NCBI GenBank assembly: GCA_015055975.1
Contig: SVHF01000002.1
Location: forward strand, 2,225 to 66,224
Length of the DNA: 64,000 bases
Direction: 5' to 3'
DNA from: Clostridiales bacterium
GTDB lineage: Bacteria > Bacillota > Clostridia > Christensenellales > UBA3700
Positions 41,386-64,000 of the stretch are shown here, piece by piece (position 1 is the stretch's first letter; every line of letters begins with the position of its first letter). Under the pieces are notes generated by a model. That model saw nothing but the letters and a program-made list of their open reading frames with translations, was not told the DNA's origin and made no database searches. A program made the translations under genes and the position numbers.

Positions 41386-41393
41386 GAGGGAAT

Positions 41394-42134: not shown

Positions 42135-42147
42135 AAAGGAGGTCAAT

Positions 42148-48252: not shown

Positions 48253-48276
48253 AGGGAGTTGCGATTGCAGCTCCCT
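48253..48276. terminator. Bidirectional terminator hairpin between convergent genes
   Basis: agggagttgc-gatt-gcagctccct (10 bp including one G-U pair). Confidence 0.55.
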
Positions 48277-48299: not shown

Positions 48300-49067
48300 T
48301 TAATCGATACTATTATAATTTTGAATCTTTGGAGATTCTGTGAATTCTTTTGGAGATACTCCAGTTATTTTTTTGAATACTCTTGAGAAATATAACTGAT
48401 CAGTAAATCCACACATTTCAGCAATTTCGTAAATCTTGTAATTGTTTACATCTTTAGATAAAAGCAACTTTTGAGCGAAGTTGATTCTTGTATTAGACAA
48501 AAATTGTAGTGGTGAAATACCTTTTTCTTTAATAAATTGACGCCTAATATAATCCTTAGATAAATCGAACTTATCATATACATCTTCTAGATCAAATTGT
48601 GGGTCAGAGAAGTTCTCAAGGATGATATTTGCAATTGCTTCAATATGGTGTGACGCTTGAATTGAATCACTAAATGCCATAAGCATAGATAGGATCAATT
48701 CTGTAAATGACATAATGATATCTGAGTGTCCCATATCTTCAAGATTGAAGTATCTTAAACACATATTCAAAATAGAGAATAAATCACATTTTTCGTTGTC
48801 GTTTATAAGAACAGCATTTTTAAATGCTGGGTTCCAATTTGCAACAGTCATGTGGATGTTTTTAAACCCATTTTGTGATGTGTTTGAGTGAATAGTTTTT
48901 GGTGGTATTATAACGACTTGATTTTTTGCGTATTGAATGTCTTGTCCACCCTTAATCTTAATAGTTCCGTTACCGTTTGTACAATATATGATTTCCCAGT
49001 AGTCATGTTGGTGAACTGAGACGTCATATGTTTTCATGTTTCTTCCGATATAATTAATTATTGGCAT
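48300..49067 (-). CDS. AraC-family transcriptional regulator (cupin sensor plus HTH_18)
   Basis: N-terminal cupin-like HQHDYWEIIYCTNGNG. C-terminal GISPLQFLSNTRINFAQKLL...IAEMCGFTDQLYFSRVFKKITGVSPKEF. Confidence 0.85.
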   Translation of the reverse strand: MPIINYIGRNMKTYDVSVHQHDYWEIIYCTNGNGTIKIKGGQDIQYAKNQVVIIPPKTIHSNTSQNGFKNIHMTVANWNPAFKNAVLINDNEKCDLFSILNMCLRYFNLEDMGHSDIIMSFTELILSMLMAFSDSIQASHHIEAIANIILENFSDPQFDLEDVYDKFDLSKDYIRRQFIKEKGISPLQFLSNTRINFAQKLLLSKDVNNYKIYEIAEMCGFTDQLYFSRVFKKITGVSPKEFTESPKIQNYNSID

Positions 49068-49255
49068 AGTTATCCCTCTTTTTGATTTGTAAAACTATTA
49101 TACAAAATCATATCCGTTTTGTCCATAATATTGATAAAAATTAGCATTGTAAATAGATATTCTTTAAATTATAATTAATTACATAGGGGCGCAATGCGTA
49201 TTATAAATAATTATTTAACACCCCGATAACGTGAATATAATTTAGGAGCACATAT

Positions 49256-49903
49256 ATGAAGAAGTTTGAAATTTATCAAGCAGTTAAGCAAGAAGGCGTT
49301 GTTGTCGTTATAAGAGGCGATAGCGTAGAACAAGCAATCAAAACAGTTGAATCATGTTATGCAGGTGGAATTAAAATCATGGAAGTTACTTTCACAGTTC
49401 CAAATGCAGACCAAATCATAAAGACTTTAGTTGAAAAATACAAGGGCACAGATATGATAGTTGGAGCTGGTACAGTTCTAGATCCAGAAACAGCAAGAGC
49501 AGCAATTTTAGCTGGTGCTCAATTTGTTGTATCTCCAGCATTAAATGTTGAGACAATCAAACTTTGCAATAGATATGGTGTTGCAGTAATGAGTGGTATC
49601 TTTACTCCAACAGAAGCAATTACAGCGCTTGAATATGGCGTAGATATTCTAAAGCTATTCCCAGGCGATGTTGCAACTCCAAAGGGATTAAAGGCTCTAA
49701 AGGGACCTCTTCCTCAAGCTAACATTATGCCAACAGGTGGCGTTAGCTTAGAAAACGTTGAAGAATGGTTCAAAGCTGGTGCTTATGCAGTAGGCGCTGG
49801 TTCATTTATTACAAAGGGCGCAAAGAGCGGAGATTATAAAGCTGTTGAAGATATTTCAAGAGAATTCGTAAATAAAGTAAAAGCAGTTAAGGGGAATAAA
49901 TAA
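49256..49903 (+). CDS. eda: 2-keto-3-deoxy-6-phosphogluconate (KDPG)/KHG aldolase
   Basis: GGIKIMEVTFTVPNA, VGAGTVLD, FVVSPA and LKLFPG blocks. Confidence 0.85.
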   Translation: MKKFEIYQAVKQEGVVVVIRGDSVEQAIKTVESCYAGGIKIMEVTFTVPNADQIIKTLVEKYKGTDMIVGAGTVLDPETARAAILAGAQFVVSPALNVETIKLCNRYGVAVMSGIFTPTEAITALEYGVDILKLFPGDVATPKGLKALKGPLPQANIMPTGGVSLENVEEWFKAGAYAVGAGSFITKGAKSGDYKAVEDISREFVNKVKAVKGNK

Positions 49904-49904
49904 G

Positions 49905-50930
49905 ATGGGCAAGATTTTAACAGTTGGCGAAATTATGATGAGATTGCAACCTCTTGGATATAAGAGATTGATGCAAGCTGACACACTAGAAGTAGTATTT
50001 GGTGGCGGCGAAGCAAACGTAGCAGTATCTTTAGCACAATTTGGCGAAGATGCTGTTTATTTTACTAAGCTTCCTAAGAACGCTTTAGCAGATAAGTGTG
50101 TAAATCAATTAAGAGGATTTGGCGTAGATACAACAAAGATTATCCGTGGCGGAGATAGAATGGGTATCTACTTCTGCGAAAAGGGATGTTCACAAAGAGG
50201 TTCAAATGTCATTTATGATAGAGCAAACTCAGCAGTATCTCAAATGAAGGCAGATGAAATCGATACAGACGATTTATTAAATGGAGTTACATGGTTACAC
50301 TGGACAGGTATCACTCCAGCTTTATCTGAAAATGCTATTGAATGCATGAGAAAGATTTTAAGAGCAGCAAAATTAAAGGGCATTACAGTATCTTGCGATC
50401 TTAACTATAGAAAGAAGCTTTGGACAAAGCAAAGAGCGAATGAAGTTATGAGCGAACTTGTAAATTATGTAGACGTTCTAATTTCAAACGAAGAAGATTC
50501 TAAAGATGTATTTGGAATCGAAGCAAGTGGCTCAAATATTACAGCAGGCGTTTTATCTGCTGATGGCTACGAAGAAATTGGTCATAAGTTAATGGCTAAA
50601 TTCCCAAATATTAAATACGTAGCATTTACACTAAGAGAATCTATTTCTGCATCAGTTAACAATTGGTCAGGAATTTTAATCACAAAAGAAAAATCATATA
50701 AGTCTAAAAAGTACACAATTCAAATCGTAGATAGAGTAGGCGGCGGAGATAGCTTCGGTGCTGGTTTAATCTATGGCCTTGTAAATAAGCTTTCAGAACA
50801 AGAAACAATCGAATATGCAATTGCTGCATCTTGTCTAAAGCATACAATAGAAGGCGACTTCAACATCACAAGTGTAGATGAAGTTATGAAACTTGTAGGA
50901 GGAGATGGCAGTGGCAGAGTTCAAAGATAG
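49905..50930 (+). CDS. kdgK: 2-dehydro-3-deoxygluconokinase (PfkB family)
   Basis: VGEIMMRL, GGGEANVAVSLAQFG and the C-terminal DRVGGGDSFGAGLIYG PfkB signature. Confidence 0.85.
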   Translation: MGKILTVGEIMMRLQPLGYKRLMQADTLEVVFGGGEANVAVSLAQFGEDAVYFTKLPKNALADKCVNQLRGFGVDTTKIIRGGDRMGIYFCEKGCSQRGSNVIYDRANSAVSQMKADEIDTDDLLNGVTWLHWTGITPALSENAIECMRKILRAAKLKGITVSCDLNYRKKLWTKQRANEVMSELVNYVDVLISNEEDSKDVFGIEASGSNITAGVLSADGYEEIGHKLMAKFPNIKYVAFTLRESISASVNNWSGILITKEKSYKSKKYTIQIVDRVGGGDSFGAGLIYGLVNKLSEQETIEYAIAASCLKHTIEGDFNITSVDEVMKLVGGDGSGRVQR

Positions 50931-52281
50931 ACCAGTCAATCTTCTAAAGAGCAAGTTTGCTGAAGATTTATATAAGCAAGTTAAGGACTTGCCAATTATC
51001 GATTATCATTGTCACTTATCTCCAAAAGAAATTTACGAAGATAAAGTATTTGATAACATTGGTGAAATGTGGCTTGCTGGCGACCATTATAAATGGCGTT
51101 TAATGAGAGCTAACGGCGTTGAAGAAAGATATATTACAGGTGGAAGCACTTGGGAAGAAAAATTCACTAAATTCATCGAAACAGTATCTACAGCATATGG
51201 TAATCCTATTCAAGATTGGGTAGCGCTAGAGCTTGAGATGTTCTTTAATATCACTCTTCCTCTAAAGCCAGAAAATGCAAAAGCTATTTGGGAAAAAGCA
51301 AATGCAAAAATTAAGGATGAACAATTATCTCCAAGAAAGCTTATAAAGATGGCAAATGTTGAATATATCGCAACAACAGATGATCCAATCGATTCACTTG
51401 AATATCATAAGCTTTTACAAGATGACAAGACATTTAACGTTAAAGTAGTGCCATCTTTTAGAGTAGACAACATCTTGTTGGCTCAAGATAAAAATTATCC
51501 AATTTACATGTGTCAATTAAGCCATGCAAGTGGAATTAAGATTCAAGATATAGAAACACTTCAAAAAGCAATACTTGCAAGAATGAACTTCTTTGTATCA
51601 ATGGGATGTAAATTCTCAGATGTTGGTATTCAAGGATTCCCAACAAGAATTGCACAAAAATCAGAAGCAGATGAAACATTTAAGTTATTGCTTCAAGGAA
51701 AAGAAGTGTCTCAAGAGCAATATAACGGATTTTTGGGATACATGTATCTATTCTTAGGAAAAGCATACACAGATAGAAAGATGGTTATGCAATTACACTT
51801 AGCAGTAACAAGAAATTCAAATAGTGAAATGTTTGAAATACTTGGAAAAGATGCAGGCTTTGACTGCGTAGGAGAAGTTATTCCAATTAACTACATAAGA
51901 AATATAATCGATGCGCTAAATTCAAATAAGGCGCTTCCAGAGACAATTATATACACACTAAACCCATCAATGTATTACACACTAATTACAATGATTGGAG
52001 CATTTAGAAACGTTCACTTAGGAATCAGTTGGTGGTTCTGCGACCACAAGCGCGGTATGTATGAAACTCTAGAAAAATTAACAGAGCTTTCACACATTAA
52101 AGCTTTAGTTGGTATGCTTACAGATTCAAGAAGTTTCTTATCTTATGTAAGACATGACTACTATAGACAAATCGTTTGCGACTTTTTAGGTGGAATTATT
52201 AAAGAGGCAGATGATTTAGCAATCGACGTTGCTAAGGCATTATGTTATACAAACGCAAAAAAGATTATTGAGGAGAGATAG
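50905..52281 (+). CDS. uxaC: Glucuronate isomerase
   Basis: [15 protein letters not shown]...[14 protein letters not shown] is the canonical UxaC N-terminus. The start is uncertain (ATG 50905 or GTG 50911) and overlaps the kdgK 3' end. Confidence 0.9.
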
Positions 52282-52283
52282 AT

Positions 52284-53330
52284 ATGAGTTTTAAGATGAC
52301 ATTCCGTTGGTACGGAGAAAACGACAAAATCACTTTAGACTACATTAGACAAATTCCAGCAGTAGAGGGAATTGTATCTGCAATCTATGATGTTCCTGTT
52401 GGTGAAGTATGGCCAATGGAAAACATTCTAAAGATGAAAAAGCAATGTAACGATGCTGGATTAACATTTGAAGTTGTTGAATCAGTTCCAGTACACGAAG
52501 ATATTAAACTTGGAAACGCTAATGCTCCAAAGTTAATCGAAGTATACAAAGAAAACATTAGAAGATTAGGAAAAGCTGGAGTTAAGTGTATTTGCTATAA
52601 CTTCATGCCAGTATTTGATTGGTTAAGAAGTAACCTTGCAAAAGAATTAACAGATGGTTCAACGGCTCTTGCTTATGACCATGCTACAGTTTTAGCAATG
52701 AATCCACTAACAAGTGAATTATCTCTTCCAGGTTGGGATTCAAGCTACACAAAGGAAGGCTTAAAAGAATTATTAAACCAATACAAAGATATTGATGAAG
52801 AAAAACTATGGAAGAACATGGAAGTATTCTTAAAAGAAATTATTCCAGTTGCGGAAGAGGCTGGCATTAAAATGGCCATTCACCCAGACGATCCACCATG
52901 GGGAATCTTTGGATTACCAAGAGTTATTACTTGCGAAGAGAATTTAAAGAGATTCTTAAAGCTTGTTGATTCTCCAGCAAATGGTATTACACTTTGCACA
53001 GGATCTTTAGGTGTATCTTCTACAAACGATATCGTTCATATGATTCATACATGCAAAGGCAGAATGCCATTTGTACATTTGAGAAATATCAAAATCACAG
53101 GCGATCATTGCTTCGAAGAAAGTGGACACTTATCTTCAAAGGGAAGCTTAGATATGTATGCAATTGTTAAAGCTCTTCATGATGATGGCTTTGACGGATA
53201 TGTAAGACCAGATCATGGAAGAATGATTTGGGGCGAAACAGGAAGACCAGGATATGGCCTTTATGATAGAGCACTAGGTGCAATGTATTTACAAGGCTTA
53301 ATTGAAGCCGTAGAAAAGGCAGATAAATAA
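52284..53330 (+). CDS. uxuA: Mannonate dehydratase
   Basis: [21 protein letters not shown]..., [10 protein letters not shown] and HPDDPPW blocks. Confidence 0.9.
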
Positions 53331-53342
53331 GGAGTTTAGAAA

Positions 53343-54179
53343 ATGGGACAAAAAATGGAAGGACAAGTTGTCGTAATTACAGGTGGCGGTGGAGTTTTAT
53401 GTAGCACTATCGCTAAAGAGTATGCAAAATTAGGTGCTAAGGTTGCTGTTACAGATTTACGTGTAGAAGCAGCTCAAGCAGTTTGTGATGAAATCGCTAA
53501 AAATGGCGGTATCGCAAAAGCTTATTCAATTAACTGTCTAGATAAAAAATCTATCCAAGCAGCTCATGATGCAATCGTTGCAGATTTAGGACCATGCACA
53601 ATCTTAGTAAATGGTGCAGGTGGTAATCATCCAAAGGGAACTACAACAAGTGAATATTTCTTCCCAGAAGATATTGATGATGAAGCTAAGGTTTCTTTCT
53701 TCGATTTAGATGAAAACGGAGTAGACTTCGTATTCAAACTAAACTTCACAGCAACATTCTTAACAACACAAGTATTTGCAAAAGATATGATTAAAACTGG
53801 TGGTAACATTATTAACATTTCTTCAATGAATGCATTTAGACCACTAACAAAAATACCAGCATATTCTGGTGCAAAGGCAGCCGTATCTAACTTTACAGCA
53901 TGGCTTGCTGTTCACTTTGCAAACGCAGGAATCAGAGTAAATGCTATCGCTCCAGGATTCTTCGTAACAAACCAAAATAAGGCATTATTATTCAATGCTG
54001 ATGGCACACCAACTCCAAGAACAGAAAAGATTTTGGCAGGAACACCAATGAGAAGATTTGGTAAGCCAGAAGAATTGTTAGGCACAATTATGTGGTTAAC
54101 AGATAATGATGCAGCATCATTTGTAACTGGAATCGTAGTACCAATTGATGGTGGATTCTCAGCTTACTCAGGAGTTTAA
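53343..54179 (+). CDS. SDR-family oxidoreductase, likely D-mannonate/fructuronate oxidoreductase (YjmF-type)
   Basis: VVITGGGGVLCS (TGxxxG) and YSGAKAAV (YxxxK). The functional call rests on context between uxuA and uxaC. Confidence 0.75.
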   Translation: MGQKMEGQVVVITGGGGVLCSTIAKEYAKLGAKVAVTDLRVEAAQAVCDEIAKNGGIAKAYSINCLDKKSIQAAHDAIVADLGPCTILVNGAGGNHPKGTTTSEYFFPEDIDDEAKVSFFDLDENGVDFVFKLNFTATFLTTQVFAKDMIKTGGNIINISSMNAFRPLTKIPAYSGAKAAVSNFTAWLAVHFANAGIRVNAIAPGFFVTNQNKALLFNADGTPTPRTEKILAGTPMRRFGKPEELLGTIMWLTDNDAASFVTGIVVPIDGGFSAYSGV

Positions 54180-54197
54180 TTCAAAATAGGGTAATTT

Positions 54198-55505
54198 ATG
54201 GAAAAGGTAAAAGAAGTAAAAGTTGTAATTTTAGGATTAGGCAATCGTGGTAAAAACTATGGTGGCCATTTAGCAAACACACCAGGTGTAAAAATTGTTG
54301 CTATCTGTGATAAATATCAAGAAAAGATAGACAAGGTAAAAAAGGCTTGGGGCGTTCCAGATGAAATGTGCTTTACAGACGAAGAAAAATTCTTTGGTCT
54401 TGGTAAGGTTGCAGATACTATGGTTATTGCTACACAAGATAAAGACCATTATGGCCATGCTATGAAGGCATTGAAGTTAGGATACAACCTAATGATAGAA
54501 AAGCCTCTATCTCCAGATATTAATCAATGTCTTGAGATGGAAGAATACGCAAGAAAGCAAGGCTGCAAGGTTTTAGTTTGCCACGTTTTAAGATATGCAC
54601 ATTACTACAAAAGAATTAAGGAAATAATCGATTCTGGAGTTTTAGGAAAGATTATTTTAATTAACCATGATGAAGACGTTGCTTACTGGCACTATTGCCA
54701 CTCATACGTTAGAGGCAATTGGAGAAGAGAGGAAGAAACATCTCCACTTCTTCTTGCAAAATGCTGCCATGACATGGACTTAATGTATTGGTATGCAGGC
54801 TCTAAGGCAAAGAGCGTTTCATCATATGGAGCATTAACTTATTTCAAACCAGGTAATGAACCAGAAGGCGCAACAGATACATGCTTTGATTGCCCACATA
54901 AAGATACCTGTAATTTTGAAGCAACATATCAATATATCGGAAGAAAGAAAAAGTTCTTCGGAAAGGAAAAGAAAAAATATAAATGGAAGCCATATGCTTT
55001 CTGTATTTCAAATGACCCAAATGACATTTTAGACAAGTTAAAGAATGACGAAAAGGGTAAGTTATGGTCAAGATGCGTATTTAAGTGCGATAACAACGTT
55101 GTAGATTGCCAAACTGTAAATATGGAAATGGAAAACGGAATACAGGTTCAATTAAACGTTAACGCATTTAATGAACATGACCATCGTCATACAGAAATAA
55201 GAGGCTCAAAAGGTATCTTGATTGCCGATGATAGCGGTTCAGTTCTAAGACTTCAATTATTTGGTAAGAAAGAAAAGAAAATCGTTGTAAATTTAATCCC
55301 TGTTATTAAAGGACACTTTGGTGGAGACCAAGGCGTTATCGCAGCAACTATCGATTTAGTTAGAGGCGAATTAGATCCTAACGGTCAATACACATGGATT
55401 CAAGATACAATCGAAAGCCATAGAATTGTAACAGCTGCAGAAATGTCAAGAAGAGACGGAGGCAGAAAAGTCGACCTAAGTGAGGTTCCAGACATTAAGA
55501 AATAA
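54198..55505 (+). CDS. Gfo/Idh/MocA family oxidoreductase (long form with a Cys-rich insert)
   Basis: VVILGLGNRGKNY Rossmann fold and MIEKPL motif. Insert TDTCFDCPHKDTC. Confidence 0.8.
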   Translation: MEKVKEVKVVILGLGNRGKNYGGHLANTPGVKIVAICDKYQEKIDKVKKAWGVPDEMCFTDEEKFFGLGKVADTMVIATQDKDHYGHAMKALKLGYNLMIEKPLSPDINQCLEMEEYARKQGCKVLVCHVLRYAHYYKRIKEIIDSGVLGKIILINHDEDVAYWHYCHSYVRGNWRREEETSPLLLAKCCHDMDLMYWYAGSKAKSVSSYGALTYFKPGNEPEGATDTCFDCPHKDTCNFEATYQYIGRKKKFFGKEKKKYKWKPYAFCISNDPNDILDKLKNDEKGKLWSRCVFKCDNNVVDCQTVNMEMENGIQVQLNVNAFNEHDHRHTEIRGSKGILIADDSGSVLRLQLFGKKEKKIVVNLIPVIKGHFGGDQGVIAATIDLVRGELDPNGQYTWIQDTIESHRIVTAAEMSRRDGGRKVDLSEVPDIKK

Positions 55506-55507
55506 GA

Positions 55508-55978
55508 ATGACTAAAATAGCGGAATTTAATTGGGATATAACAAGCGCTGATACCAAAAAGCATCTATCTGGGGATTTCTTGGTAGATAAGCCATACGAT
55601 AAATTAATCTTCGATTGTTCATACACTCCAAAGTATTTGGAAGATAACGTCGCTGGATTAAAAATGATGAAAGAAGCATTAGTTAAAGCAGATTGGTCTT
55701 TGTCTAAATATACGGATGAAGACTTGCTAAAGCATATGCCTCTTGCAAATCATGTATCGTGGTCTGTAGATAGCCCTATAGAGTTTGTTGGCACAAAACA
55801 TAAGCATGATCCACATCAAATCTTGCAAGTGTCAAATGGCCAATCAACTCCAGGATTTAAAAATACGCCTATCTACGAAGGCAGATGGTCTATTACAGCG
55901 TCTTTAAATGCTGTTTTGACAGATAAGTTATCTATCCACATTGTTGTATCAGGAGATGGCGATAATGAAATGGTATAG
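55508..55978 (+). CDS. Hypothetical protein (156 aa)
   Basis: The ORF is tightly packed between neighbours and overlaps the next gene by 14 nt. No motif recognised. Confidence 0.45.
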   Translation: MTKIAEFNWDITSADTKKHLSGDFLVDKPYDKLIFDCSYTPKYLEDNVAGLKMMKEALVKADWSLSKYTDEDLLKHMPLANHVSWSVDSPIEFVGTKHKHDPHQILQVSNGQSTPGFKNTPIYEGRWSITASLNAVLTDKLSIHIVVSGDGDNEMV

Positions 55979-56951
55979 AGTTGAATTACATACACATACA
56001 ATAGCATCTGATGGAATTATGGATCCAGAAGAGCTAGCAAAAAGAGGAAAGAAGAGAAATTACGACGCAATCGTTGTAACAGATCACAATACAACAACTT
56101 CTTGCAATGCAGTTGCAGAAAAGGGCAAGAAGGTTGGACTTGTCGTTGTTCCAGGAATAGAATGGACAACATTTTGGGGCCATATAGTTGTAAGTGGCGG
56201 TCATTCTACAGTTGATTGGCGTTCGATAAACCTTGATAACATAGACGAGAAAATGGCAGCAGCAAGAAAGAGCGGAGATATAGTTACTGTTGCTCATCCA
56301 AAAAGACCTGGGACACCATTTTGTTCTGAGTGTAGATTCTTGTATAAGCTAAAGGATTGGAATAATGTAGATGCATATGAAGTTTGGTCTCATTACAATC
56401 CATCTTTAGCAGAAGATACAAAACTTGCTAAAAAAGAATGGTCAAATCTTATAAATGAAGGGTATAAGATTGCTCCAGTTTATGGATATGATTGGCATGA
56501 ACCAGATGAAGATGGCCCAGCTTATGCGTATACATATGTAGGGTTGGATGATGAATTGCCATTAACTCCAGAAAACATCTTGCAAGCAATAAGAGATAGA
56601 CATACATATCTTGCAATGGGAGTTAATGTTGTTGCCAGTATCTTAGTTGATGATAAAGAGTTTTTCTTTGGCGATGAAATCTTAGCAAAGCAAGCAACAA
56701 TAAAGTTGCAAGCTCACGTATCTAGTGATTACAAAAAGAGATTCGACGTTGAAGTTAAAGGCTTGAGAATATACAAAAATGGAAAGATGTTCTTGGCTAA
56801 AAAGTGGGAAGGAGAAGAAATTGAAATCCCAGTTGATTTAGATTGTAAGAACATAAGAGTTGAATTATATGGTGCAGTTGATGGCAATGATTGCGATATA
56901 GCAATTCTAAGCCCGATATATATAGTAAAAAGAGGTAAAAAGGGATTATGA
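55965..56951 (+). CDS. PHP-domain (CehA/McbA-like) metallohydrolase
   Basis: MKWYRVELHTHTIASDG (HxH...D) and VAHP motifs. SD aggaga is 8 nt upstream of ATG 55965. Confidence 0.75.
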   Translation: MKWYRVELHTHTIASDGIMDPEELAKRGKKRNYDAIVVTDHNTTTSCNAVAEKGKKVGLVVVPGIEWTTFWGHIVVSGGHSTVDWRSINLDNIDEKMAAARKSGDIVTVAHPKRPGTPFCSECRFLYKLKDWNNVDAYEVWSHYNPSLAEDTKLAKKEWSNLINEGYKIAPVYGYDWHEPDEDGPAYAYTYVGLDDELPLTPENILQAIRDRHTYLAMGVNVVASILVDDKEFFFGDEILAKQATIKLQAHVSSDYKKRFDVEVKGLRIYKNGKMFLAKKWEGEEIEIPVDLDCKNIRVELYGAVDGNDCDIAILSPIYIVKRGKKGL

Positions 56952-57589
56952 TAACAGCACATGGTGGTTCATTTAATTCAGGTAGAAATTCAAACAAATA
57001 CTTGAACCATACAGACATCTTTGATGCAGATGCAATTGAGGTAGATATCTACAAAATGTTCGGCGTTTTGTATATCAGCCACTGGCCAGCTCCATTTACT
57101 TATTACAAGAAGATTCGTTTAAGAGAAGTATTCAAACTTGTAAAAGAAAAGGGAATGAAAGTTAATTGCGATTTAAAGACACACGGCATTATTGGCGATG
57201 TAATTAAGCTTGCAAAGTCAATGGGCGTTGAAAACCAATTAATATTCACTGGTTGCGTAAGCGAGTCAGACTACAAAATTATAGACTGTGGCGAAGCTTG
57301 GTTTAATAGAATTAAAGGCATCAAATATAAGGCAAAGAATGCAAAGGCCATCAAAGAAAGAATAGATAGCTACAATAATCCTCATTTCAAAGGTATAAAC
57401 CTAAATTACCATAGAGTAAATGCAAGATTTATAGAAGCTTGCAAAGCCGTAGATTTAAAGCTAAGTGTATTTACGGTTGACGATATCGAAGCACTATTAA
57501 GATTAGTGCCAGTAATCGATGGAAACATAACAACAAATTTACCACTTGTTGCAAGATCAATTCTAAACAAGTTGGGAACAAACAAATAA
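56948..57589 (+). CDS. Glycerophosphodiester phosphodiesterase (GDPD)-like protein
   Basis: ITAHGG..., ADAIEVDIY...LYISH, VNCDLKT and the C-terminal SVFTVDD...IDGNITTNLP follow GDPD block order. Divergent. Confidence 0.55.
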   Translation: MITAHGGSFNSGRNSNKYLNHTDIFDADAIEVDIYKMFGVLYISHWPAPFTYYKKIRLREVFKLVKEKGMKVNCDLKTHGIIGDVIKLAKSMGVENQLIFTGCVSESDYKIIDCGEAWFNRIKGIKYKAKNAKAIKERIDSYNNPHFKGINLNYHRVNARFIEACKAVDLKLSVFTVDDIEALLRLVPVIDGNITTNLPLVARSILNKLGTNK

Positions 57590-57598
57590 GGGGTATAT

Positions 57599-58732
57599 AT
57601 GATAAACGTAGCAGTAGTCGGTGTTGGTAGAATGGGTTCAAAACATGCTTACAATTTAGCAAAGCGTGTCAAGGGCGCAAACCTTGTTGCAATATGTGAC
57701 TTAGATACTCAAAAGGCCAACATGATAGCAAAAAAGCTTAAAGCAAAAGCTTATTATGATGTAGACGAGATGTTAAAAGCGGAAAAGCTAGATGGCGTGG
57801 TAATTGCTACTCCACATTATTCTCACGTAGATATTGCGTTGAAGTGCTTGGATAAGGGAATTAACATCTTATGTGAAAAGCCTATATCTGTGACAACTAA
57901 AGAAGCAAATAAGTTGTTAGCAAAAGCAAAGGATTCTAATTTGATTTGTTCAATGATGTACAATCAAAGAACAAATAGAATGTATCAAAAGGCAAGAGAG
58001 TTAATAGCAACTGGTGCAATAGGTAAAATCCAAAGAGTGAATTTCACAATCACAGATTGGTATAGAGCGCAATTCTATTACAACATGGGAGGATGGAGAG
58101 CTAGCTGGTCTGGAGAAGGTGGCGGAACTTTAATTAACCAATGCGTTCACCAATTAGATTTATTGCAATGGCTATGTGGTATGCCAGCACTTATAAAATC
58201 ATACAATCAAACAAAGGGCAGAAGAATTACAACAGAAAACGATGTGACTGCCATTATGAGATTTGATGGATTTGATTGTGTGTTCACAGCATCAACACAT
58301 GAAATCCCAGGAGTAAATAGATTGGAAATCGCAGGGGATAAAGGTATCATCACAATTTATTCTAAGACAATGAAATATAGACTAAATAAGATGAGTGAGC
58401 CAGAAGTAAACCAAAGAGCAAAGCGCGATTATGGTAACAAGAAAGACAAAACTGGCAAAACATATCATTATTGGTATGGACTAAAAAATGCTATTAAAGA
58501 TGCAATACGTGGTCAACAATGCAATATCATTGAAAATTTTGTAGCAGCTGTTGAAAACAAAAACAAGGATTTGTTAATTGCACCACTTGAAGAGGGAATT
58601 AAAGCATTAACTTTGATTAATGCACTAAATATGTCTTCATGGGAAAATGAGGAAATTAAAATTCCATTTGATGATGAAGAATATGCAGAACTATTAAAAG
58701 AAAAAATTGATAAAGAAAAGCAAGATAAGTAA
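57599..58732 (+). CDS. Gfo/Idh/MocA family oxidoreductase
   Basis: INVAVVGVGRMGSKHA, ILCEKPI and GGWRASWSGEGGGTLINQCVHQLDL. Confidence 0.85.
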   Translation: MINVAVVGVGRMGSKHAYNLAKRVKGANLVAICDLDTQKANMIAKKLKAKAYYDVDEMLKAEKLDGVVIATPHYSHVDIALKCLDKGINILCEKPISVTTKEANKLLAKAKDSNLICSMMYNQRTNRMYQKARELIATGAIGKIQRVNFTITDWYRAQFYYNMGGWRASWSGEGGGTLINQCVHQLDLLQWLCGMPALIKSYNQTKGRRITTENDVTAIMRFDGFDCVFTASTHEIPGVNRLEIAGDKGIITIYSKTMKYRLNKMSEPEVNQRAKRDYGNKKDKTGKTYHYWYGLKNAIKDAIRGQQCNIIENFVAAVENKNKDLLIAPLEEGIKALTLINALNMSSWENEEIKIPFDDEEYAELLKEKIDKEKQDK

Positions 58733-58744
58733 TTGGAGGATTTT

Positions 58745-59692
58745 ATGGTTAAAATTTCAGGATTTTATGATGAAGCAAGTTCAGATTTAAGAAAGCAATG
58801 CGAATTGATTAAATCATTTGGCGAAGAATATCTTTGCCCAAGAGTTGTAAATGGTAGAAATATCTCTACATATACAGCAGAAGAATTCGAAAAGGAAATT
58901 AAGCCAATACTTGATGAATATGGCGTTAAGTTCTCTTCAATTGGTTCACCTATTGGTAAGATTGATTTATATGATGATGAAGCATATGCAGTTCAATTAA
59001 AGAAGCTAGAAGAATTAGTTAAGATCTGCAAAATTATGAATTGTAAATATATCAGAATGTTCTCATTCCATGTTGATCCAAAAGGAAACTACGACGAATA
59101 TTTCCCAGTAGTTGTTAAGAAGTTAAAGGGATTCTTGGAAGTAGTTAAGGGAACAGATGTAATTCTTCTTCATGAAAATGAAAAGAAGATTTATGGTGAT
59201 ACACCAGAAAGAGTATTGAAGATTTATGATGCAATCAACGATCCTCAATTCCAATTAGCATTTGATGCTTCAAACTTTATTCAATGCAATTGTAATGCAC
59301 CTCAAGCATATGAAATGTTAAAAGATAAGGTTGTTTATTATCATATCAAGGATTGTTCACCAGAAAAGGTTGAAGTTCCAATCGGACTTGGTGAAGGCGG
59401 ATATGAAAATATGATTCACGACTTAATCGTAAATAGAAAATATGATGGCTTCATGACTTTGGAACCACACACAGGAAAATATGCTGAAGCTAAGATTATA
59501 TTCAACTGCTTCTTCTGGATTACATGGATTGTTCCATACGTAAGATACTGGCATAAAGTATTTAGAAGAATTGATAAAGGCATGGGAATCAAGAAGTGGC
59601 AAAAGGTAGATAGACCAACTATTGTTACATGGCAATATCAAGGACTAAAGAAATTATTAGACAAAGCATACGCTGAAGTTAACAAGAAATAA
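58745..59692 (+). CDS. Sugar-phosphate isomerase/epimerase (xylose-isomerase-like TIM barrel)
   Basis: YIRMFSF, LLHENE, HIKD and MTLEPH blocks of the AP_endonuc_2 fold. Start moved to ATG 58745 (SD ggagg). Confidence 0.75.
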   Translation: MVKISGFYDEASSDLRKQCELIKSFGEEYLCPRVVNGRNISTYTAEEFEKEIKPILDEYGVKFSSIGSPIGKIDLYDDEAYAVQLKKLEELVKICKIMNCKYIRMFSFHVDPKGNYDEYFPVVVKKLKGFLEVVKGTDVILLHENEKKIYGDTPERVLKIYDAINDPQFQLAFDASNFIQCNCNAPQAYEMLKDKVVYYHIKDCSPEKVEVPIGLGEGGYENMIHDLIVNRKYDGFMTLEPHTGKYAEAKIIFNCFFWITWIVPYVRYWHKVFRRIDKGMGIKKWQKVDRPTIVTWQYQGLKKLLDKAYAEVNKK

Positions 59693-59701
59693 GGAGTAAT
59701 T

Positions 59702-60874
59702 ATGGAAAAGGTTAGATATGGAATTATTGGTGTAGGTAAGCAAGGACATTTATATGCTCAATTTATCTACGATGGATTTGATAAAAATGCTGTCTTAACA
59801 GCAATTTGTGATGAAAGCGAAGAAAGACGCGAATGGGCAAAGAAAAGATTAGCAGGCGTTGAAATCTTTTCTAATTATGAAGATATGCTAAAGAGCGGTC
59901 TTATTGATGCTGTTATGGTAGAAACTCCTCACTATTTCCACCCAGAAATAGTAAAGAAAGCATTGGAGGCAGGTCTTCATGTTATGAGTGATAAGCCAGC
60001 TGGTGTTTACACAAAAGCAGTTAGAGAAACAGCAGAATTTGCAAAGACAAAGCCAAATCAAGTTTGCGCTCTTTTATTAAACCAAAGAACAAACAAGGCA
60101 TATAGAGAAGCTAAAAAGATTATTGAATCTGGCGAACTTGGAAACCTAAAGAGAATTGTTTGGATTATTACAAACTGGTATAGACCACAAGCTTACTATG
60201 ATCAAGGAGGCTGGAGAGGCACTTGGGCAGGAGAAGGCGGTGGCGTTCTTATCAACCAAGATCCACACCAATTAGACTTATTCACATGGCTTGCTGGCCA
60301 AAAGATTACAAAGGTTTGGGCAACAGCTAAAACTGTAGGTAGAAAGATTAACGTAGAAAACGATGTTACAGCTTGCTGCGAATTCGAAAATGGTGCAACA
60401 GGTGTATTTATTACATCAACTCATGATGCTCCAGGAACAAATAGATTGGAAATCACAGGAGACGGCGGTAAAATTGTTATCTCTGGTCCAAACGATTGGA
60501 TGATGAAGATGGAATTCACAAAGAACGAAATAATGGAACCAGAATTTTCTGCAACAAATAAAGTGTTCATGGGAAAACCAAAAACAACAACAAGAACAGT
60601 TAAGTATTCATACTTTGAAATTATCCAAAAGCTAATTAAAAACAGAGGTATGCAACACCCAGATGTTATTAGAAACTTCTCAAATGTAATTTTGGGTAAT
60701 GAAAAAGAATTGATTGGAAGATACGAAGAAGGACTAAACGGACTAACATTCTCAAACGCAATTCACCTATCTTCTTGGTTAGGCAAGGAAATTACATTGC
60801 CACTTGATGAAGACTTATTCATTAAAGAATTAGATAAGAGAAAGGCTGAAGAAGCTAAATCTAGCAATAAATAG
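59702..60874 (+). CDS. Gfo/Idh/MocA family oxidoreductase (paralogue of 57599-58732)
   Basis: VRYGIIGVGKQGHLYA, VMSDKPA and GGWRGTWAGEGGGVLINQDPHQLDL. Confidence 0.85.
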   Translation: MEKVRYGIIGVGKQGHLYAQFIYDGFDKNAVLTAICDESEERREWAKKRLAGVEIFSNYEDMLKSGLIDAVMVETPHYFHPEIVKKALEAGLHVMSDKPAGVYTKAVRETAEFAKTKPNQVCALLLNQRTNKAYREAKKIIESGELGNLKRIVWIITNWYRPQAYYDQGGWRGTWAGEGGGVLINQDPHQLDLFTWLAGQKITKVWATAKTVGRKINVENDVTACCEFENGATGVFITSTHDAPGTNRLEITGDGGKIVISGPNDWMMKMEFTKNEIMEPEFSATNKVFMGKPKTTTRTVKYSYFEIIQKLIKNRGMQHPDVIRNFSNVILGNEKELIGRYEEGLNGLTFSNAIHLSSWLGKEITLPLDEDLFIKELDKRKAEEAKSSNK

Positions 60875-60881
60875 GTGAGAT

Positions 60882-62810
60882 ATGAGCGTTAGTTATAAAG
60901 ATGGAAAAATTATCGTAGATGAAGCATTTCATAATGATACTAATTATGATGTAGCTAATAATTTAATCACAGCACAATTTAATGGCAAGGGAGCTATTCC
61001 AAAATATGCTGTTATGAATAAGTTCTCAGTATTTTCAGCATACTATAACTTAATCAGCGTAGATGGCGTAGCTTTTGATTGGAATGCACAAAAGCATGTT
61101 GAGATGGTTGGAAAGAAGCAAGTTACATCTTTTTCTACAAAAGATTTTGATATTGAGATTTTGCAATTTTTAGATCAAAAGAGCAATTGCATCTATGTTC
61201 AAAACAAAGTTAAAGCAAAAAGAGATATTGACTTTAGAGTAGTTAACAATTTTGGTATTAACTATTCTTCATATGTTGAACAACTTCTTGCAAATAGATT
61301 ATCTCCAAAGACTATTGCAACTTTGCTTGCAGGTTTCTGTAGATCAAAAAGAAACGGCTTAACTATCCAAGAAGATGGCTCAGGTTATATTAGAGGAGAC
61401 GTTCTTGGTGACTTCTATTTAGATATCGCTATCTCTACAGAGCCAATTGCGCTTGAATCAGAAAGAGGATTTGTTAACCAATTTGGTTATGGCTCAAAAA
61501 TTGCCAAGGGTGAAGAAAAAGTATATAGATTCGTAATTTCTGCTGGGACAAGAACAGATTTCACATTCTGCGATGTTAAAGAGGCTCTAAAGAACTTCGA
61601 TAATGCAATTAAAGATACAGATGCGTATATTGATTCTCTAAAGTGCCCAGTTGAATTAAAAGACGAATTCTTAAATGCTTATTACAAATCACTTCTAAAT
61701 ACATCTTTATCTAACTACAAAGAATTAAATAAATTCAAAGGATTCTTAGCAGGCATTGTATATCAATTCCCAGCAAGAACATATTATAGAGATGCATACT
61801 GGACAGTTTTATCTGTTTTGCCAGTTCAACCACAGTTAGTTAGAAATGAAATTATAACACTTGCAAACGGTATTAACTCAAAAGGTGAGTGCCCAAGTGC
61901 TGTTAAATTCAATTTCAAAAATTACTGGGGAAATCACTATGATTCACCATCATTCTTTGTAATGATGATATATGATTACATCGCTCATACAAATGATAAA
62001 TCTATCCTAAACGGAAATGTTGCATGCGGAACAGTTCTAGATAGTGCAAGATTAGTTTTAGATAGATTATATGAAGAAGTAGAAGAATCTACAGGCTTAT
62101 TACTAAAGGGCGGTATGTTCAACAGAAGAGACTGGTGCGATAACGTATTTAGATCAACATATTGTACATACGATGAAGTTCTATACTGCAGAGCTTTATA
62201 CTGCTTGAGCGAGATTTATAAGCTATCTAACGAAGAATTATCTCAAAAGTATGCTAAGATGCATGAAAAGGTTAAAAAGAGCATTAATGATTTGCTTTGG
62301 GATGAAGAAAAGGGCTGGTATATCAACTATAAGTCTGAAAACTTCACAGAAGACAACCTATCTATAGATACCGTTGTTGCAGCTCTATTTGGAGTTGCTG
62401 ATGAAAAGAGAGCAAGAAGAATGCTTGAAAATATGGAAAAGTGGCTAGAAAGTAAGAACAATAAAGAACAAGTAGCTGGAGATTTTGGTACTCTTGCTGT
62501 TTATCCATTCTATAAGAATGTTCAAGATATCGTTCAAAAGTCATCATTGCCTTATTATTATCACAATGGTGGAGATTGGCCATATTTATCTTCAATCTAT
62601 GCATATGCAAAATTGATGTATGGTATGGATTATATGTATCCTCTAACAAGATGGTTTACATATAATATTGAAAAGGGCAACTATACTCCAATCGAGTTCT
62701 TTAGCCCATTACAAAAAGATGGTTCATTACTACAAGCGTGGTCATCAACAGGTGCTTTTGTATTAAGCTACCCAGATGGCAAGTTCTTTAGTAAGAAAAT
62801 AGAAAAATAA
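60882..62810 (+). CDS. Six-hairpin (alpha/alpha)6 glycoside hydrolase, GDE_C/GH63-like
   Basis: YYRDAYWTVLSVLP, DSPSFFVMMIYDY, HNGGDWPYLS and LLQAWSSTGAF resemble amylo-alpha-1,6-glucosidase/GH63-type catalytic barrels. Family not resolved. Confidence 0.6.
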   Translation: MSVSYKDGKIIVDEAFHNDTNYDVANNLITAQFNGKGAIPKYAVMNKFSVFSAYYNLISVDGVAFDWNAQKHVEMVGKKQVTSFSTKDFDIEILQFLDQKSNCIYVQNKVKAKRDIDFRVVNNFGINYSSYVEQLLANRLSPKTIATLLAGFCRSKRNGLTIQEDGSGYIRGDVLGDFYLDIAISTEPIALESERGFVNQFGYGSKIAKGEEKVYRFVISAGTRTDFTFCDVKEALKNFDNAIKDTDAYIDSLKCPVELKDEFLNAYYKSLLNTSLSNYKELNKFKGFLAGIVYQFPARTYYRDAYWTVLSVLPVQPQLVRNEIITLANGINSKGECPSAVKFNFKNYWGNHYDSPSFFVMMIYDYIAHTNDKSILNGNVACGTVLDSARLVLDRLYEEVEESTGLLLKGGMFNRRDWCDNVFRSTYCTYDEVLYCRALYCLSEIYKLSNEELSQKYAKMHEKVKKSINDLLWDEEKGWYINYKSENFTEDNLSIDTVVAALFGVADEKRARRMLENMEKWLESKNNKEQVAGDFGTLAVYPFYKNVQDIVQKSSLPYYYHNGGDWPYLSSIYAYAKLMYGMDYMYPLTRWFTYNIEKGNYTPIEFFSPLQKDGSLLQAWSSTGAFVLSYPDGKFFSKKIEK

Positions 62811-62828
62811 TATACGGAGGGTTTAATT

Positions 62829-64000
62829 GTGAGCGAAGAAACAACAATGAACAACGAAAGTGTTGTTGTTGCTGAACTAGAAGCTAATCCAGGCGATCCA
62901 AACGGATTATCAGCAGAAGAGCAAGCTCTTTTGGGTAAGAAGTATTTAAAGCCTAGAGATTATTGGCTATTCAGTTTAGCAAGATTCGCATCAAGTGCCG
63001 TTACAGGTTTGGTTCAAGGTTACTTGTTGTATTTCTATACATCATGTGTCGGAATCAACGCAGCAGCGGTAGGTTTGATGTTCTTGATTACAAAAATCTT
63101 CGATGGTTTGAATGACCCAATCATGGGTGCTATCGTAGATAAGACAAGAACAAAGTGGGGTAAGATGAGACCTTACTTGTTCTTCGGTGCTGTTCCTTGG
63201 GGTATTATAACTATATTGATGTTCTTACCTCAAATTTATGCGGGAATGAATATGACAGGAAAGATCGTGTATATGTATGTTACATATATCGCATATGGTC
63301 TTTTAGGAACAATCATTGGTGTACCTTTGGATGGTATCCCTGCTGTTGCATCTCCAAATACAGATGAAAGAGCAAAGATTATTTCTATTTCTCGTATCTT
63401 AGGAAGTATCGGTGAACAATCAGCTTTAGTTCTTCTTACTGCATTCTTATTGTTTACACACGATGACTATTCATCTTCATACATGTGGATGGGTATTGTT
63501 ATCGGTATCTTAGGACCAATCTTCATGTTGCTTGGTGCTATGACAATCAAGGAAAGATTAGAGCCAACTAAGCAAACTCCTAGTGTTTGGGAAGGATTTA
63601 AATATCTATTCAAGAATAAGCAGTTTATGTTACTTATCCTATCTAATCTATTAACATTCTTTAGAAACTTAGTTTCAGCTATGATTCTATATGTAGTGTC
63701 ATATGTTATAGGAAAAGGATCATTGCAAATTGTATTCTCGCTTCCTGGAGCCGTCGCGTCAATGATTGGTATGATGATTGCGCCTAAGATGAGAAAGATG
63801 ATGGACTCTAAGAAGTTGTTTATAGTTGCTACAATTTGGCACTCAGTAGCTCTTGCAGTTATCTTCTTTATTTCTTTGGCAGTCGGCATCGAAAATCTTC
63901 CAAAGACATGGGGCTGGGTACTTCTTGCAGGTATGATGTTCGTTGCTATGATCCCAGTAGGTATCTTAAACGTAATTCCTCACTTAATGGCAACAGATAC
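62829..64000 (+). CDS. Glycoside-pentoside-hexuronide (GPH):cation symporter, 3' end outside window
   Basis: This ORF is not in the track because it has no stop within the window. GTG 62829 lies 10 nt after ggagg. LITKIFDGLNDPIMGAIVDKTRTKWGKMRPYLFFGAVPWG is the GPH/MelB/UidB signature. Confidence 0.85.
   Translation, partial: MSEETTMNNESVVVAELEANPGDPNGLSAEEQALLGKKYLKPRDYWLFSLARFASSAVTGLVQGYLLYFYTSCVGINAAAVGLMFLITKIFDGLNDPIMGAIVDKTRTKWGKMRPYLFFGAVPWGIITILMFLPQIYAGMNMTGKIVYMYVTYIAYGLLGTIIGVPLDGIPAVASPNTDERAKIISISRILGSIGEQSALVLLTAFLLFTHDDYSSSYMWMGIVIGILGPIFMLLGAMTIKERLEPTKQTPSVWEGFKYLFKNKQFMLLILSNLLTFFRNLVSAMILYVVSYVIGKGSLQIVFSLPGAVASMIGMMIAPKMRKMMDSKKLFIVATIWHSVALAVIFFISLAVGIENLPKTWGWVLLAGMMFVAMIPVGILNVIPHLMATD

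Follow-up and report, generated by a model that had tools for sequence, protein, structure and literature searches.

A 16-gene clostridial operon that probably couples oxidise-eliminate cleavage of glucuronides to glucuronate catabolism

Positions 48,300 to 64,000 of the stretch of DNA analysed here (64,000 nucleotides of contig SVHF01000002.1, assembly GCA_015055975.1, from a Clostridiales bacterium; designated the window) hold the gene of a divergent AraC-family regulator and most of a 16-gene operon, in which the genes of glucuronate catabolism are followed by genes for oxidoreductases, hydrolases and a GPH-type carrier. We consider it probable that this operon imports glycosides of glucuronic acid, cuts them by an oxidise-eliminate route and burns the glucuronate that is set free. 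The centre of this explanation is a group of three adjacent genes, encoding two oxidoreductases of the Gfo/Idh/MocA family (Gfo2 and Gfo3) and a TIM-barrel protein located between them, which most likely form a trio fitting 3-keto oxidation and elimination of glucuronides and feeding the uronate route. A first-pass annotation, made from the sequence alone, had placed the nine genes downstream of the hexuronate genes outside the hexuronate route. Since the three members of the trio are homologous to the glucuronide-cleaving enzymes of the P2B11 gene cluster, they would feed this route and are better counted with it, while five further genes (encoding Gfo1, u156, PHP, u213 and GH642, described below) stay unexplained. 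The same annotation appears to have been right in suggesting the import of a glucuronide-like glycoside, and its remark on keto-sugar chemistry agrees with the homology to the 3-keto enzymes of P2B11.

The oxidation and elimination genes

The P2B11 cluster, which originates from a human-gut fosmid and has the gene order Iso1-Oxido1-Oxido2-Iso2, has been shown experimentally to cleave α- and β-glucuronides as well as thioglucuronides (bioRxiv 10.1101/2024.03.25.586180). Tightly bound NAD first serves to oxidise C3, a metal-dependent 1,2-elimination then expels the aglycone, and the product is hydrated and reduced again; cleavage proceeds via a 3-keto intermediate and is stimulated by Mn2+ or Co2+ (bioRxiv 10.1101/2024.03.25.586180). 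The structure of Oxido1 is available as PDB entry 8TDI, deposited under the name "P2B11 Glucuronide-3-dehydrogenase" (bioRxiv 10.1101/2024.03.25.586180). The corresponding genes of the window are:

57599..58732, + strand, Gfo2, paralogue of the glucuronide 3-dehydrogenase (8TDI, E=4.2e-67)
58745..59692, + strand, xylose isomerase-like TIM barrel, homologue of P2B11 Iso1 (PF01261, E=4.6e-21; first in-frame start at 58733)
59702..60874, + strand, Gfo3, closest homologue of P2B11 Oxido1 (8TDI, E=1.6e-93, full length)

In a MAFFT alignment, Gfo3 and 8TDI share 42.8% identity, and the six active-site residues of Oxido1 (N147, W179, R181, Y185, N205 and H209, in the numbering of the paper, which is that of the 8TDI chain plus 10) are all kept. 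They are likewise all kept in Gfo2, which is 33.7% identical to 8TDI, 38.6% to Gfo3 and 26% to Oxido2. The TIM barrel has 39-46% identity to the Iso1 proteins of P2B11-like loci (blastp, E about 1e-72) and shares with them the invariant residues H147, E148, D178, H204, D207, E244 and H246, which are typical of a metal site; we infer that it acts as a 3-keto-glucuronide 1,2-lyase/hydratase. Apart from a secondary match of UxuA, its gene is the sole AP_endonuc_2 gene of the operon. An insertion of about 25 hydrophobic, Trp/Phe-rich residues (KIIFNCFFWITWIVPYVRYWHKVF) is located at residues ~250-275 of the TIM barrel; it is present in all orthologues from the extended operon and absent from Iso1 of the P2B11 type.

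Matches of the Gfo proteins in NCBIfam are generic (IolG, levoglucosan dehydrogenase, UDP-GlcNAc 3-dehydrogenase), and all of them are weak and far below the cut-off. Against the IolG model TIGR04380, which has a cut-off of 355 bits, Gfo1 scores 79, Gfo2 140 and Gfo3 105 bits, and there are no iol genes inside the operon.

In the proposed mechanism, the operon would be under the control of the AraC regulator, and the GPH symporter, perhaps aided by its cognate surface lipoprotein, would import a glycoside containing glucuronic acid. Gfo3 and/or Gfo2 would oxidise C3 of the glucuronide in the cytoplasm by means of tightly bound NAD, and the metal-dependent TIM barrel would then remove the acidified C2 proton and eliminate the aglycone from either anomer. 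The glycal product would be hydrated to 3-keto-glucuronate, and reduction of the latter by a Gfo enzyme would give D-glucuronate, the overall result being net hydrolysis. From there, UxaC, the mannonate oxidoreductase of the short-chain dehydrogenase/reductase (SDR) type, UxuA, KdgK and Eda would lead to pyruvate and glyceraldehyde-3-phosphate.

For comparison, 80 P2B11-like loci were fetched whose Oxido1 proteins are 64-85% identical to 8TDI. They have the published architecture, often with an adjoining MFS_2 carrier gene and sometimes with uxaC or uxuA. The operon of the window resembles P2B11 in that the TIM barrel gene lies directly upstream of that of Gfo3, as Iso1 precedes Oxido1, in that a second Gfo enzyme is present, and in that both systems come from Gram-positive gut bacteria. 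It differs in forming one operon with a complete glucuronate pathway, a regulator, a transporter and a lipoprotein, and in the presence of Gfo1, u156, PHP, the GDPD-like protein u213 and GH642, which are found in none of the 80 loci. Judged by its proteins, the operon would work like P2B11 but is not a straightforward member of the P2B11 architecture, as the Oxido1 and Iso1 types are represented and the Iso2 type is not.

Several points weigh against the proposed function. The identity of Gfo3 to the characterised enzyme is only 43%, and the six kept residues of Oxido1 are general to the glycoside 3-dehydrogenase site rather than known determinants of glucuronide specificity. Gfo2 is closer to Oxido1 and Gfo3 than to Oxido2, so that a role as a divergent Oxido2 is ambiguous; the second oxidoreductase of the operon appears to be an Oxido1-like paralogue rather than an Oxido2 orthologue. 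The gene order is Gfo2-TIM-Gfo3, and no homologue of Iso2 was detected among the window proteins by blastp with the Iso2 proteins of loci L024 and L030 (E<=0.01). Finally, Gfo1, u156, PHP, u213 and GH642 are conserved without an assigned step, and the actual substrate could be quite unlike a simple glucuronide.

Organization and boundaries of the operon

Open reading frame (ORF) listing together with Pfam and NCBIfam scans confirmed the gene map of the block. As stated in the first-pass annotation, 14 co-oriented genes with minimal gaps follow the divergent AraC gene; they lie on the + strand, reach the window end and are spaced by -26 to +18 nt. The upstream boundary comprises the following features:

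48300..49067, - strand, AraC-family regulator, divergent (HTH_18, 7.5e-17; HTH_AraC; AraC_binding)
49068..49255, no strand assigned, AraC-eda divergent promoter region with promoter-like consensus matches facing both ways

The promoter-like sites of this region, which are consensus matches only, are located at 49125-49097 on the - strand (11/12 matches) and at 49147-49175 on the + strand (10/12). The position of the AraC gene is kept in all related loci in which the region is visible. The downstream boundary became accessible through the metagenomic contig L001, which is identical to window positions 49702-64000 (100% identity, 0 mismatches in 14,299 nt). Past the window end, L001 completes the GPH gene (569 amino acids) and continues with a lipoprotein of 343 amino acids and a terminator with a 16-bp stem, located 17 nt 3' of the lipoprotein stop codon. 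The operon comprises a total of 16 genes and ends at this lipoprotein just beyond the window, not at position 64000. A convincing terminator inside the operon was not found, and an Rfam search of the whole window for riboswitches or leader elements gave no family at the gathering score. The block is real in the sense that it is a single tightly packed unit with promoter-like sites at one end and a strong terminator at the other. Among the operon proteins, only the terminal lipoprotein has a signal peptide and no enzyme has one; all enzymes of the operon are cytoplasmic.

Glucuronate catabolism and transport

The first five genes of the operon encode the catabolic branch:

49256..49903, + strand, eda, KDPG/KHG aldolase (PF01081, E=5.6e-44)
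49905..50930, + strand, kdgK-type PfkB kinase (PF00294, E=2.7e-34), with a specificity for 2-keto-3-deoxygluconate (KDG) that is suggested by context
50911..52281, + strand, uxaC, glucuronate isomerase (PF02614, E=1.9e-152; first in-frame start at 50905)
52284..53330, + strand, uxuA, D-mannonate dehydratase (PF03786, E=2.2e-149)
53343..54179, + strand, SDR-type D-mannonate oxidoreductase with UxuB function (NF006132, 418 bits vs a cut-off of 281)

The role of the second gene product as KDG kinase is assigned because its gene sits between eda and uxaC. In the identical contig L001, uxaC is called with a product of 456 amino acids. Together, the five enzymes degrade glucuronate to pyruvate and glyceraldehyde-3-phosphate, and all five steps of this isomerase (Ashwell) pathway for D-glucuronate (isomerase, oxidoreductase, dehydratase, KDG kinase and KDPG aldolase) are represented in the operon. 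The first-pass annotation was right about the gene families and about the glucuronate branch being complete. As the hexuronate branch present is of the uxuA/uxuB type only, and not of the uxaA/uxaB type, glucuronate rather than galacturonate is the likely fuel.

At the other end of the operon, the carrier gene is cut by the window end:

62829..64000, + strand, GPH/MFS_2 cation symporter with a GTG start (PF13347, 1.2e-50; TIGR00792, 206 bits)

In every variant of the operon, the last two genes encode a GPH carrier and, behind it, a lipoprotein that has a lipobox. The GPH/MFS_2 carrier is unusually long (515-607 amino acids across the variants), and the carrier-lipoprotein pair extends over L001:13128-15935, equivalent to positions 62829-65636 in window numbering. 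The lipoprotein has 309-434 amino acids, is poorly conserved and lacks a Pfam match; its pairing with the carrier is unexplained. An ORF of 140 amino acids (63467-63889, - strand) lies antisense within the GPH gene and is most likely spurious. Behind the operon terminator, past the window end, L001:16179-19892 encodes a lipoprotein of 736 amino acids and a protein of 460 amino acids, both without a Pfam match; the N-terminus of the latter is extremely acidic and repetitive (DDEIIDDEIIDDDEIVDD...).

Conserved genes without an assigned step

Between the catabolic genes and the carrier gene, besides the oxidation and elimination trio, the following five genes are present:

54198..55505, + strand, Gfo1, Gfo/Idh/MocA oxidoreductase of 435 amino acids with a Cys-rich insertion (Pfam GFO_IDH_MocA N- and C-terminal domains)
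55508..55978, + strand, u156, beta-sandwich protein of 156 amino acids, putative partner or N-terminal domain of the PHP hydrolase
55965..56951, + strand, PHP, trinuclear metallohydrolase of the CehA/McbA type (NF038032, 203 bits vs 80, full length; PF02811, 1.1e-7)
56948..57589, + strand, u213, 213 amino acids, GDPD fold (PLC-like phosphodiesterase TIM barrel) according to profile and structure model
60882..62810, + strand, GH642, (alpha/alpha)6 six-hairpin glycosidase-like protein of 642 amino acids (GDE_C, 6e-9; trehalase, 8e-9; GH94 superfamily, 2e-7)

These conserved extra genes imply that the substrate would be more complex than a simple glucuronide. GH642, u213, u156-PHP and Gfo1 would then strip further substituents, such as an extra sugar, phosphate or another ester, from it. 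Alternatively, u213 might replace Iso2, the missing second "isomerase" of P2B11.

Three of the six active-site positions of Oxido1 are occupied by V, Y and A in Gfo1. Its insertion contains the cysteine motif C229-x2-C232-x5-C238 ... C293-x3-C297-x6-C304 (residues 229-304), of which the first five cysteines are invariant and C304 is present in 8/9 orthologues, being replaced by Asn in L020. Such a cluster sets Gfo1 apart from the usual Gfo/Idh/MocA enzymes and might be an Fe-S or Zn site. Across the operon variants Gfo1 is 67-97% identical, slightly above Gfo3 and GH642. A function as inositol dehydrogenase was considered and is not supported, given the score of 79 bits against the 355 required for IolG and the three differing pocket residues.

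The protein u156 has no match in Pfam or NCBIfam and no sequence match in the PDB. Its structure model (pLDDT 87.5) is a generic beta-sandwich without a specific structural neighbour (TM-score<=0.5). It was rare in a word-indexed search (19 clusters); an exhaustive search with a hidden Markov model gave 295 representative clusters. A PHP domain follows immediately after the u156 domain in all ten long family members tested, so that u156 belongs specifically to this PHP subfamily, either as a partner or as a domain. Fusions of the two proteins of about 495 amino acids occur at L016:5710-7194 and L106:8511-10004. Many invariant His and Asp residues (H19, H82, H98, H100, D46, D70, D88) suggest that u156 may contribute to a metal site or active site.

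The combination of Gfo enzyme, TIM barrel and small unannotated protein superficially recalls DgpA, DgpC and DgpB, which deglycosylate C-glycosides, and DgpA structures are among the weak PDB matches (E 1e-13 to 1e-17). A DgpA/DgpB/DgpC-type deglycosylation of C-glucuronides is nevertheless highly improbable: the best match by far is 8TDI, an enzyme for O- and S-glucuronides, and u156 is fused to PHP and not to the TIM barrel. Moreover, although Dgp structures are in the PDB, neither the TIM barrel (E<=0.01) nor u156 (E<=1) has a sequence match there. We have rejected the DgpABC-like reading on account of these missing matches and of the pairing of u156 with PHP. The idea that u156 is an analogue of the DUF1080/GH16-like lyase or of DgpB was likewise discarded, its model being a generic beta-sandwich without a specific neighbour (TM-score<=0.5).

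In PHP, the metal motifs (HxH, D, DH, E, H, H, DxH) are all invariant in seven orthologues. Its relatives in the PDB are phosphoesterases, with a match confined to the N-terminal ~80 residues. PHP shares with the CehA/McbA group the match to NF038032 and the metal ligands, and differs from it in the added beta-sandwich partner u156, fused in some genomes.

As a single sequence, u213 gives no match to the GDPD family (PF03009) of Pfam even at E<=10, whereas a profile of eight orthologues finds the GDPD 2pz0 in the PDB with E=3.2e-6. The AlphaFold model (pLDDT 96) has as its 42 best PDB matches GDPDs or GDPD-fold domains, with TM-scores of 0.7-0.8. Residues H5, G6, G7, R13, N14, E31, D33, H45, D75 and K77 do not vary among 33 members of the family. 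The family always has HGG instead of HRG and (G)RN as the ENT motif, and it keeps both catalytic His residues, the acidic metal triad and the Lys; in u213 the phosphate-binding Arg of HRG is accordingly replaced by Gly. Compared with the GDPDs GlpQ/UgpQ (PDB 2pz0, 5t9b), u213 has the same fold, is about 40 residues shorter and has as neighbours PHP/u156, a gene resembling phosphodiesterases of the metallo-beta-lactamase (MBL) fold and PfkB kinases rather than glp/ugp genes. The label "GDPD", which NCBI gives to some members of this family of about 300 clusters, is valid at the level of fold and superfamily only. A faint match of u213 to PI-PLC-X (E=0.06) is not significant. Genes for u213 are found in every operon variant.

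GH642 is also kept in all operon variants, with an identity of 65-95%. Its matches to GDE_C, trehalase and the GH94 superfamily are weak and exceed the gathering score. Its similarity to known families is at clan level only (GDE_C, trehalase, GH94 superfamily, GH100 and GH78; E 1e-9 to 1e-3 in Pfam and PDB searches with the single sequence and with a profile), and the profile gave only weak matches in the PDB, the trehalase at 2.8e-5 and the GH78 enzyme RhaB at 4e-5.

Distribution of the operon and of its parts

Relatives of u156 occur in 4 of 185,579 GTDB species, all of them uncultured Clostridia or metagenome-assembled genomes (MAGs) of Christensenella from rumen or sheep, and in these four species and close metagenomic relatives the genes from AraC-eda through the lipoprotein are syntenic. 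The occurrence of u156 in these species puts the source of the window near the Christensenellales. More distant homologues of Gfo3 and u213 led to three further architectures. Overall, the whole block is kept in several lineages of Clostridia and in at least four architectures, down to an identity of about 60% for Gfo3 and 40-50% for u213, and the loci belong to Christensenella-like MAGs from rumen, sheep and mouse gut. The architectures are distinguished by u156 and PHP, which are separate in L020 and L105, fused in L016 (mouse gut) and L106, and absent, with everything else kept, in L018, L019 and L107. One dehydrogenase variant of the operon is present on more than 200 contigs.

Parts of the block are also found on their own. 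An independent trio of a u156 homologue (u148), PHP and a u213-like gene is located at L103:526-3892 next to a gene for an iron-containing alcohol dehydrogenase, and at L102:7513-15612 u213-like genes accompany an MBL phosphodiesterase-like gene, two divergent PfkB kinases, an SSF carrier and a split transketolase. These two clusters possibly represent unknown phospho-sugar pathways. The distant contexts of u213 were also considered as a link to inositol and rejected as such, that of L102 being phospho-sugar-like and not inositol-specific. A splitting of the block into independent sub-operons in relatives, against which the first-pass annotation had set its own reading, is therefore seen in part: sub-modules stand alone, but the full block is conserved as well. 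The comparison of the loci indicates a modular block whose assembled 16-gene unit is nevertheless stably inherited.

The separate occurrence of the modules, the generic family annotations of the Gfo proteins and the finding that the P2B11 enzymes slowly turn over 6-phospho- and 6-sulfo-glycosides and sulfoquinovosides, too (bioRxiv 10.1101/2024.03.25.586180), are also compatible with a different substrate, for example some other keto-sugar or an anhydrosugar, a derivative of inositol or a glycoside with a 6-phospho or 6-sulfo group, whose degradation genes would simply be placed in one operon with an ordinary glucuronate pathway. We regard this as improbable, in view of the translational packing with the uxu genes in one unit and the conservation of this joining across lineages. 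In addition, the nearest characterised homologue is specifically a glucuronide 3-dehydrogenase, and stand-alone P2B11-like clusters also recruit uxaC and uxuA.

The GH38 neighbourhood and more complex substrates

Upstream of the AraC gene, the window contains a separate transcription unit:

44389..47334, + strand, alpha-mannosidase of glycoside hydrolase family 38 (GH38) with N-terminal, middle and C-terminal domains
47349-48230, + strand, lipoprotein u293 with signal peptide and lipobox, without a Pfam match
48253-48276, + strand, terminator-like hairpin closing the GH38-u293 unit, with a 10-bp stem including 6 GC pairs

A GH38 gene is located upstream of AraC in six of the seven informative loci (window, L009, L014, L015, L106 and L107), even though their downstream flanks differ. 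The exception is L105 (MAG GCA_029058825.1), which has at this position (L105:1-1338) a gene for an iolA-like methylmalonate-semialdehyde dehydrogenase and a true iolG (TIGR04380, 463 bits vs the cut-off of 355). In L014 (Christensenella sp. SUG1028; L014:1-2758), a GH2 beta-mannosidase-like gene encoding 839 amino acids lies between GH38 and AraC and replaces u293. Words shared between the region upstream of GH38 and the AraC-eda spacer, which could have indicated a common AraC operator, were not above those of shuffled controls. Just upstream of GH38, the minus strand (42951-44231) contains an ORF of 426 amino acids without a family match, and positions 39931-42834 of the window hold genes for an M20 peptidase and a DUF5058 protein followed by another small ORF.

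The first-pass annotation had included GH38 in its speculative proposal that the substrate is the mannosyl-glucuronosyl-inositol-phosphate head group of a plant or fungal glycosyl-inositol-phosphoceramide (GIPC). In plants, this head group would have the form hexose/HexN(Ac)-alpha1,4-GlcA-alpha1,2-inositol-phosphate (HexN(Ac), hexosamine or its N-acetyl form; GlcA, glucuronic acid), and its dismantling by the operon together with GH38 appears unlikely to us. GH38 or GH642 would take the capping sugar, u213 and u156-PHP the phosphodiester and phosphate, and the 3-keto system the alpha-GlcA-inositol bond, before the glucuronate would pass to the Uxu enzymes. The 3-keto module would, on this reading, exist because no hydrolase could cut the alpha-GlcA-inositol bond, and there is only a slender chance that the operon and GH38 constitute the first bacterial pathway for the GIPC head group or for a related phospho-inositol or phospho-glycerol glucuronide.

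What speaks for such a substrate is circumstantial, namely the conserved position of GH38 just upstream of AraC and the iolA-iolG pair that takes this position in L105, to which the cleavage of alpha- as well as beta-glucuronides by P2B11 and the origin of the loci from rumen, sheep and mouse gut, where the food is rich in plant matter, can be added. GH38 and the operon are, however, separated by a terminator and by a regulator gene on the opposite strand, they share no operator beyond chance, Gfo1 is not an IolG, and the operon is devoid of iol genes. All the enzymes are cytoplasmic and located behind a GPH carrier, and no lipid-cleaving step was identified. The more general idea that the substrate has a phosphodiester linkage is a reasonable conjecture: on its GDPD fold u213 keeps both catalytic His residues as well as the metal triad, the metal site of PHP is intact and its solved relatives are phosphoesterases, and u156, PHP and u213 recur as an independent trio in L103. 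On the other hand, PHP and u156 are missing from the otherwise complete operons of L018, L019 and L107, and u213 has lost the phosphate-binding Arg. Furthermore, GH38 and the GH2 beta-mannosidase of L014 could equally form an unrelated unit for mannosides or N-glycans, and the literature searched contained no precedent for a GIPC pathway of this kind.

Equally plausible as the GIPC head group, and in our estimate just as far from being the favoured substrate, is a phosphate-free oligosaccharide of mannose (Man) and GlcA. Known polymers with such units are xanthan, with the side chain beta-Man-1,4-beta-GlcA-1,2-alpha-Man, and glucuronomannan, with 4-beta-GlcA-1,2-alpha-Man repeats. From a side chain of the xanthan type or a plant or algal glucuronomannan, mannose would be taken off by GH38, joined in some genomes by GH2; a beta-glucuronidase would be replaced by the 3-keto system, with PHP and u213 serving as esterases or auxiliary eliminases. 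This would suit the conserved adjacency of GH38, the GH2 beta-mannosidase-like gene in L014, the six-hairpin glycosidase-like nature of GH642 and the membership of PHP in the CehA/McbA group, whose name comes from hydrolases of carbamate esters. It is at odds with the lack of a mannose kinase or isomerase in the operon and of any sign that GH38 is co-regulated with it, and it leaves unexplained both the GDPD-fold enzyme, whose relatives lie beside phosphoesterase-type genes and sugar kinases, and the iolA-iolG adjacency in L105. The cleavage of glucuronides by the oxidise-eliminate route, with the aglycone and its substituents left unspecified, is the explanation that we prefer.

Comparison with other known systems

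Classical glucuronide utilization is represented by uidABC together with uxaC-uxuAB-kdgK-eda in E. coli and by uxaC-yjmBCD-uxuA-yjmF in Bacillus subtilis. The operon described here resembles these systems in combining a GPH carrier with UxaC, UxuA, an SDR mannonate oxidoreductase, KdgK and Eda and in passing the released glucuronate into the KDPG route. In contrast to them, it lacks a GH2 beta-glucuronidase, in place of which a multi-enzyme redox/elimination module is predicted to cleave the substrate, and its regulator is of the AraC type. A second group of comparators are the AL1-AL4 and BT2156-BT2160 systems of Alistipes and Bacteroides thetaiotaomicron, with which the operon has in common the sequence of activities, i.e. 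a predicted Gfo 3-dehydrogenase, a metal-dependent TIM-barrel 1,2-lyase, hydration and reduction. The similarity in amino acid sequence is low, a DUF1080 lyase/hydratase is missing here, the setting is cytoplasmic and not periplasmic, and the specificity is presumably for glucuronides rather than for glucosides and mannosides.

A description of such an operon was not found in the literature searched, which covered 3-keto-glucuronide chemistry, bacterial degradation of GIPCs and glucuronide operons of Christensenellaceae, and in which the preprint of Nasseri was the only relevant item. The work of Nasseri and Withers reportedly also appeared in Nature (2024, 631:199).

Significance

At present, GH2 beta-glucuronidases (GUS) are held responsible for freeing drugs, hormones and bilirubin from their glucuronides in the gut, and inhibitors are designed against these enzymes. 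The operon suggests that Clostridia possess a widespread and self-contained alternative, in which redox-elimination cleavage would be coupled directly to glucuronate catabolism. An oxidise-eliminate route of this kind would escape GUS inhibitors and may hence be relevant to the reactivation of glucuronides in the gut. It would also extend the non-Koshland mode of glycan breakdown reported in 2024 to an entire regulon that includes its own transporter, regulator and downstream pathway, and such a regulon lends itself to a genetic search for the physiological substrate.

To a specialist, a 3-keto glucuronide module beside uxu genes will not be astonishing; the conserved and elaborate architecture around it is a concrete and testable lead. 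The Gfo enzyme with its Cys cluster, the beta-sandwich partner of PHP, the GDPD-fold enzyme without the Arg, the unclassified six-hairpin glycosidase and the pairing of a lipoprotein with an MFS carrier mark places where new chemistry may be found. If the substrate were a phospho-linked glucuronide such as the head group of a plant sphingolipid, the operon would open up a new area, the turnover of dietary lipid-glycans.

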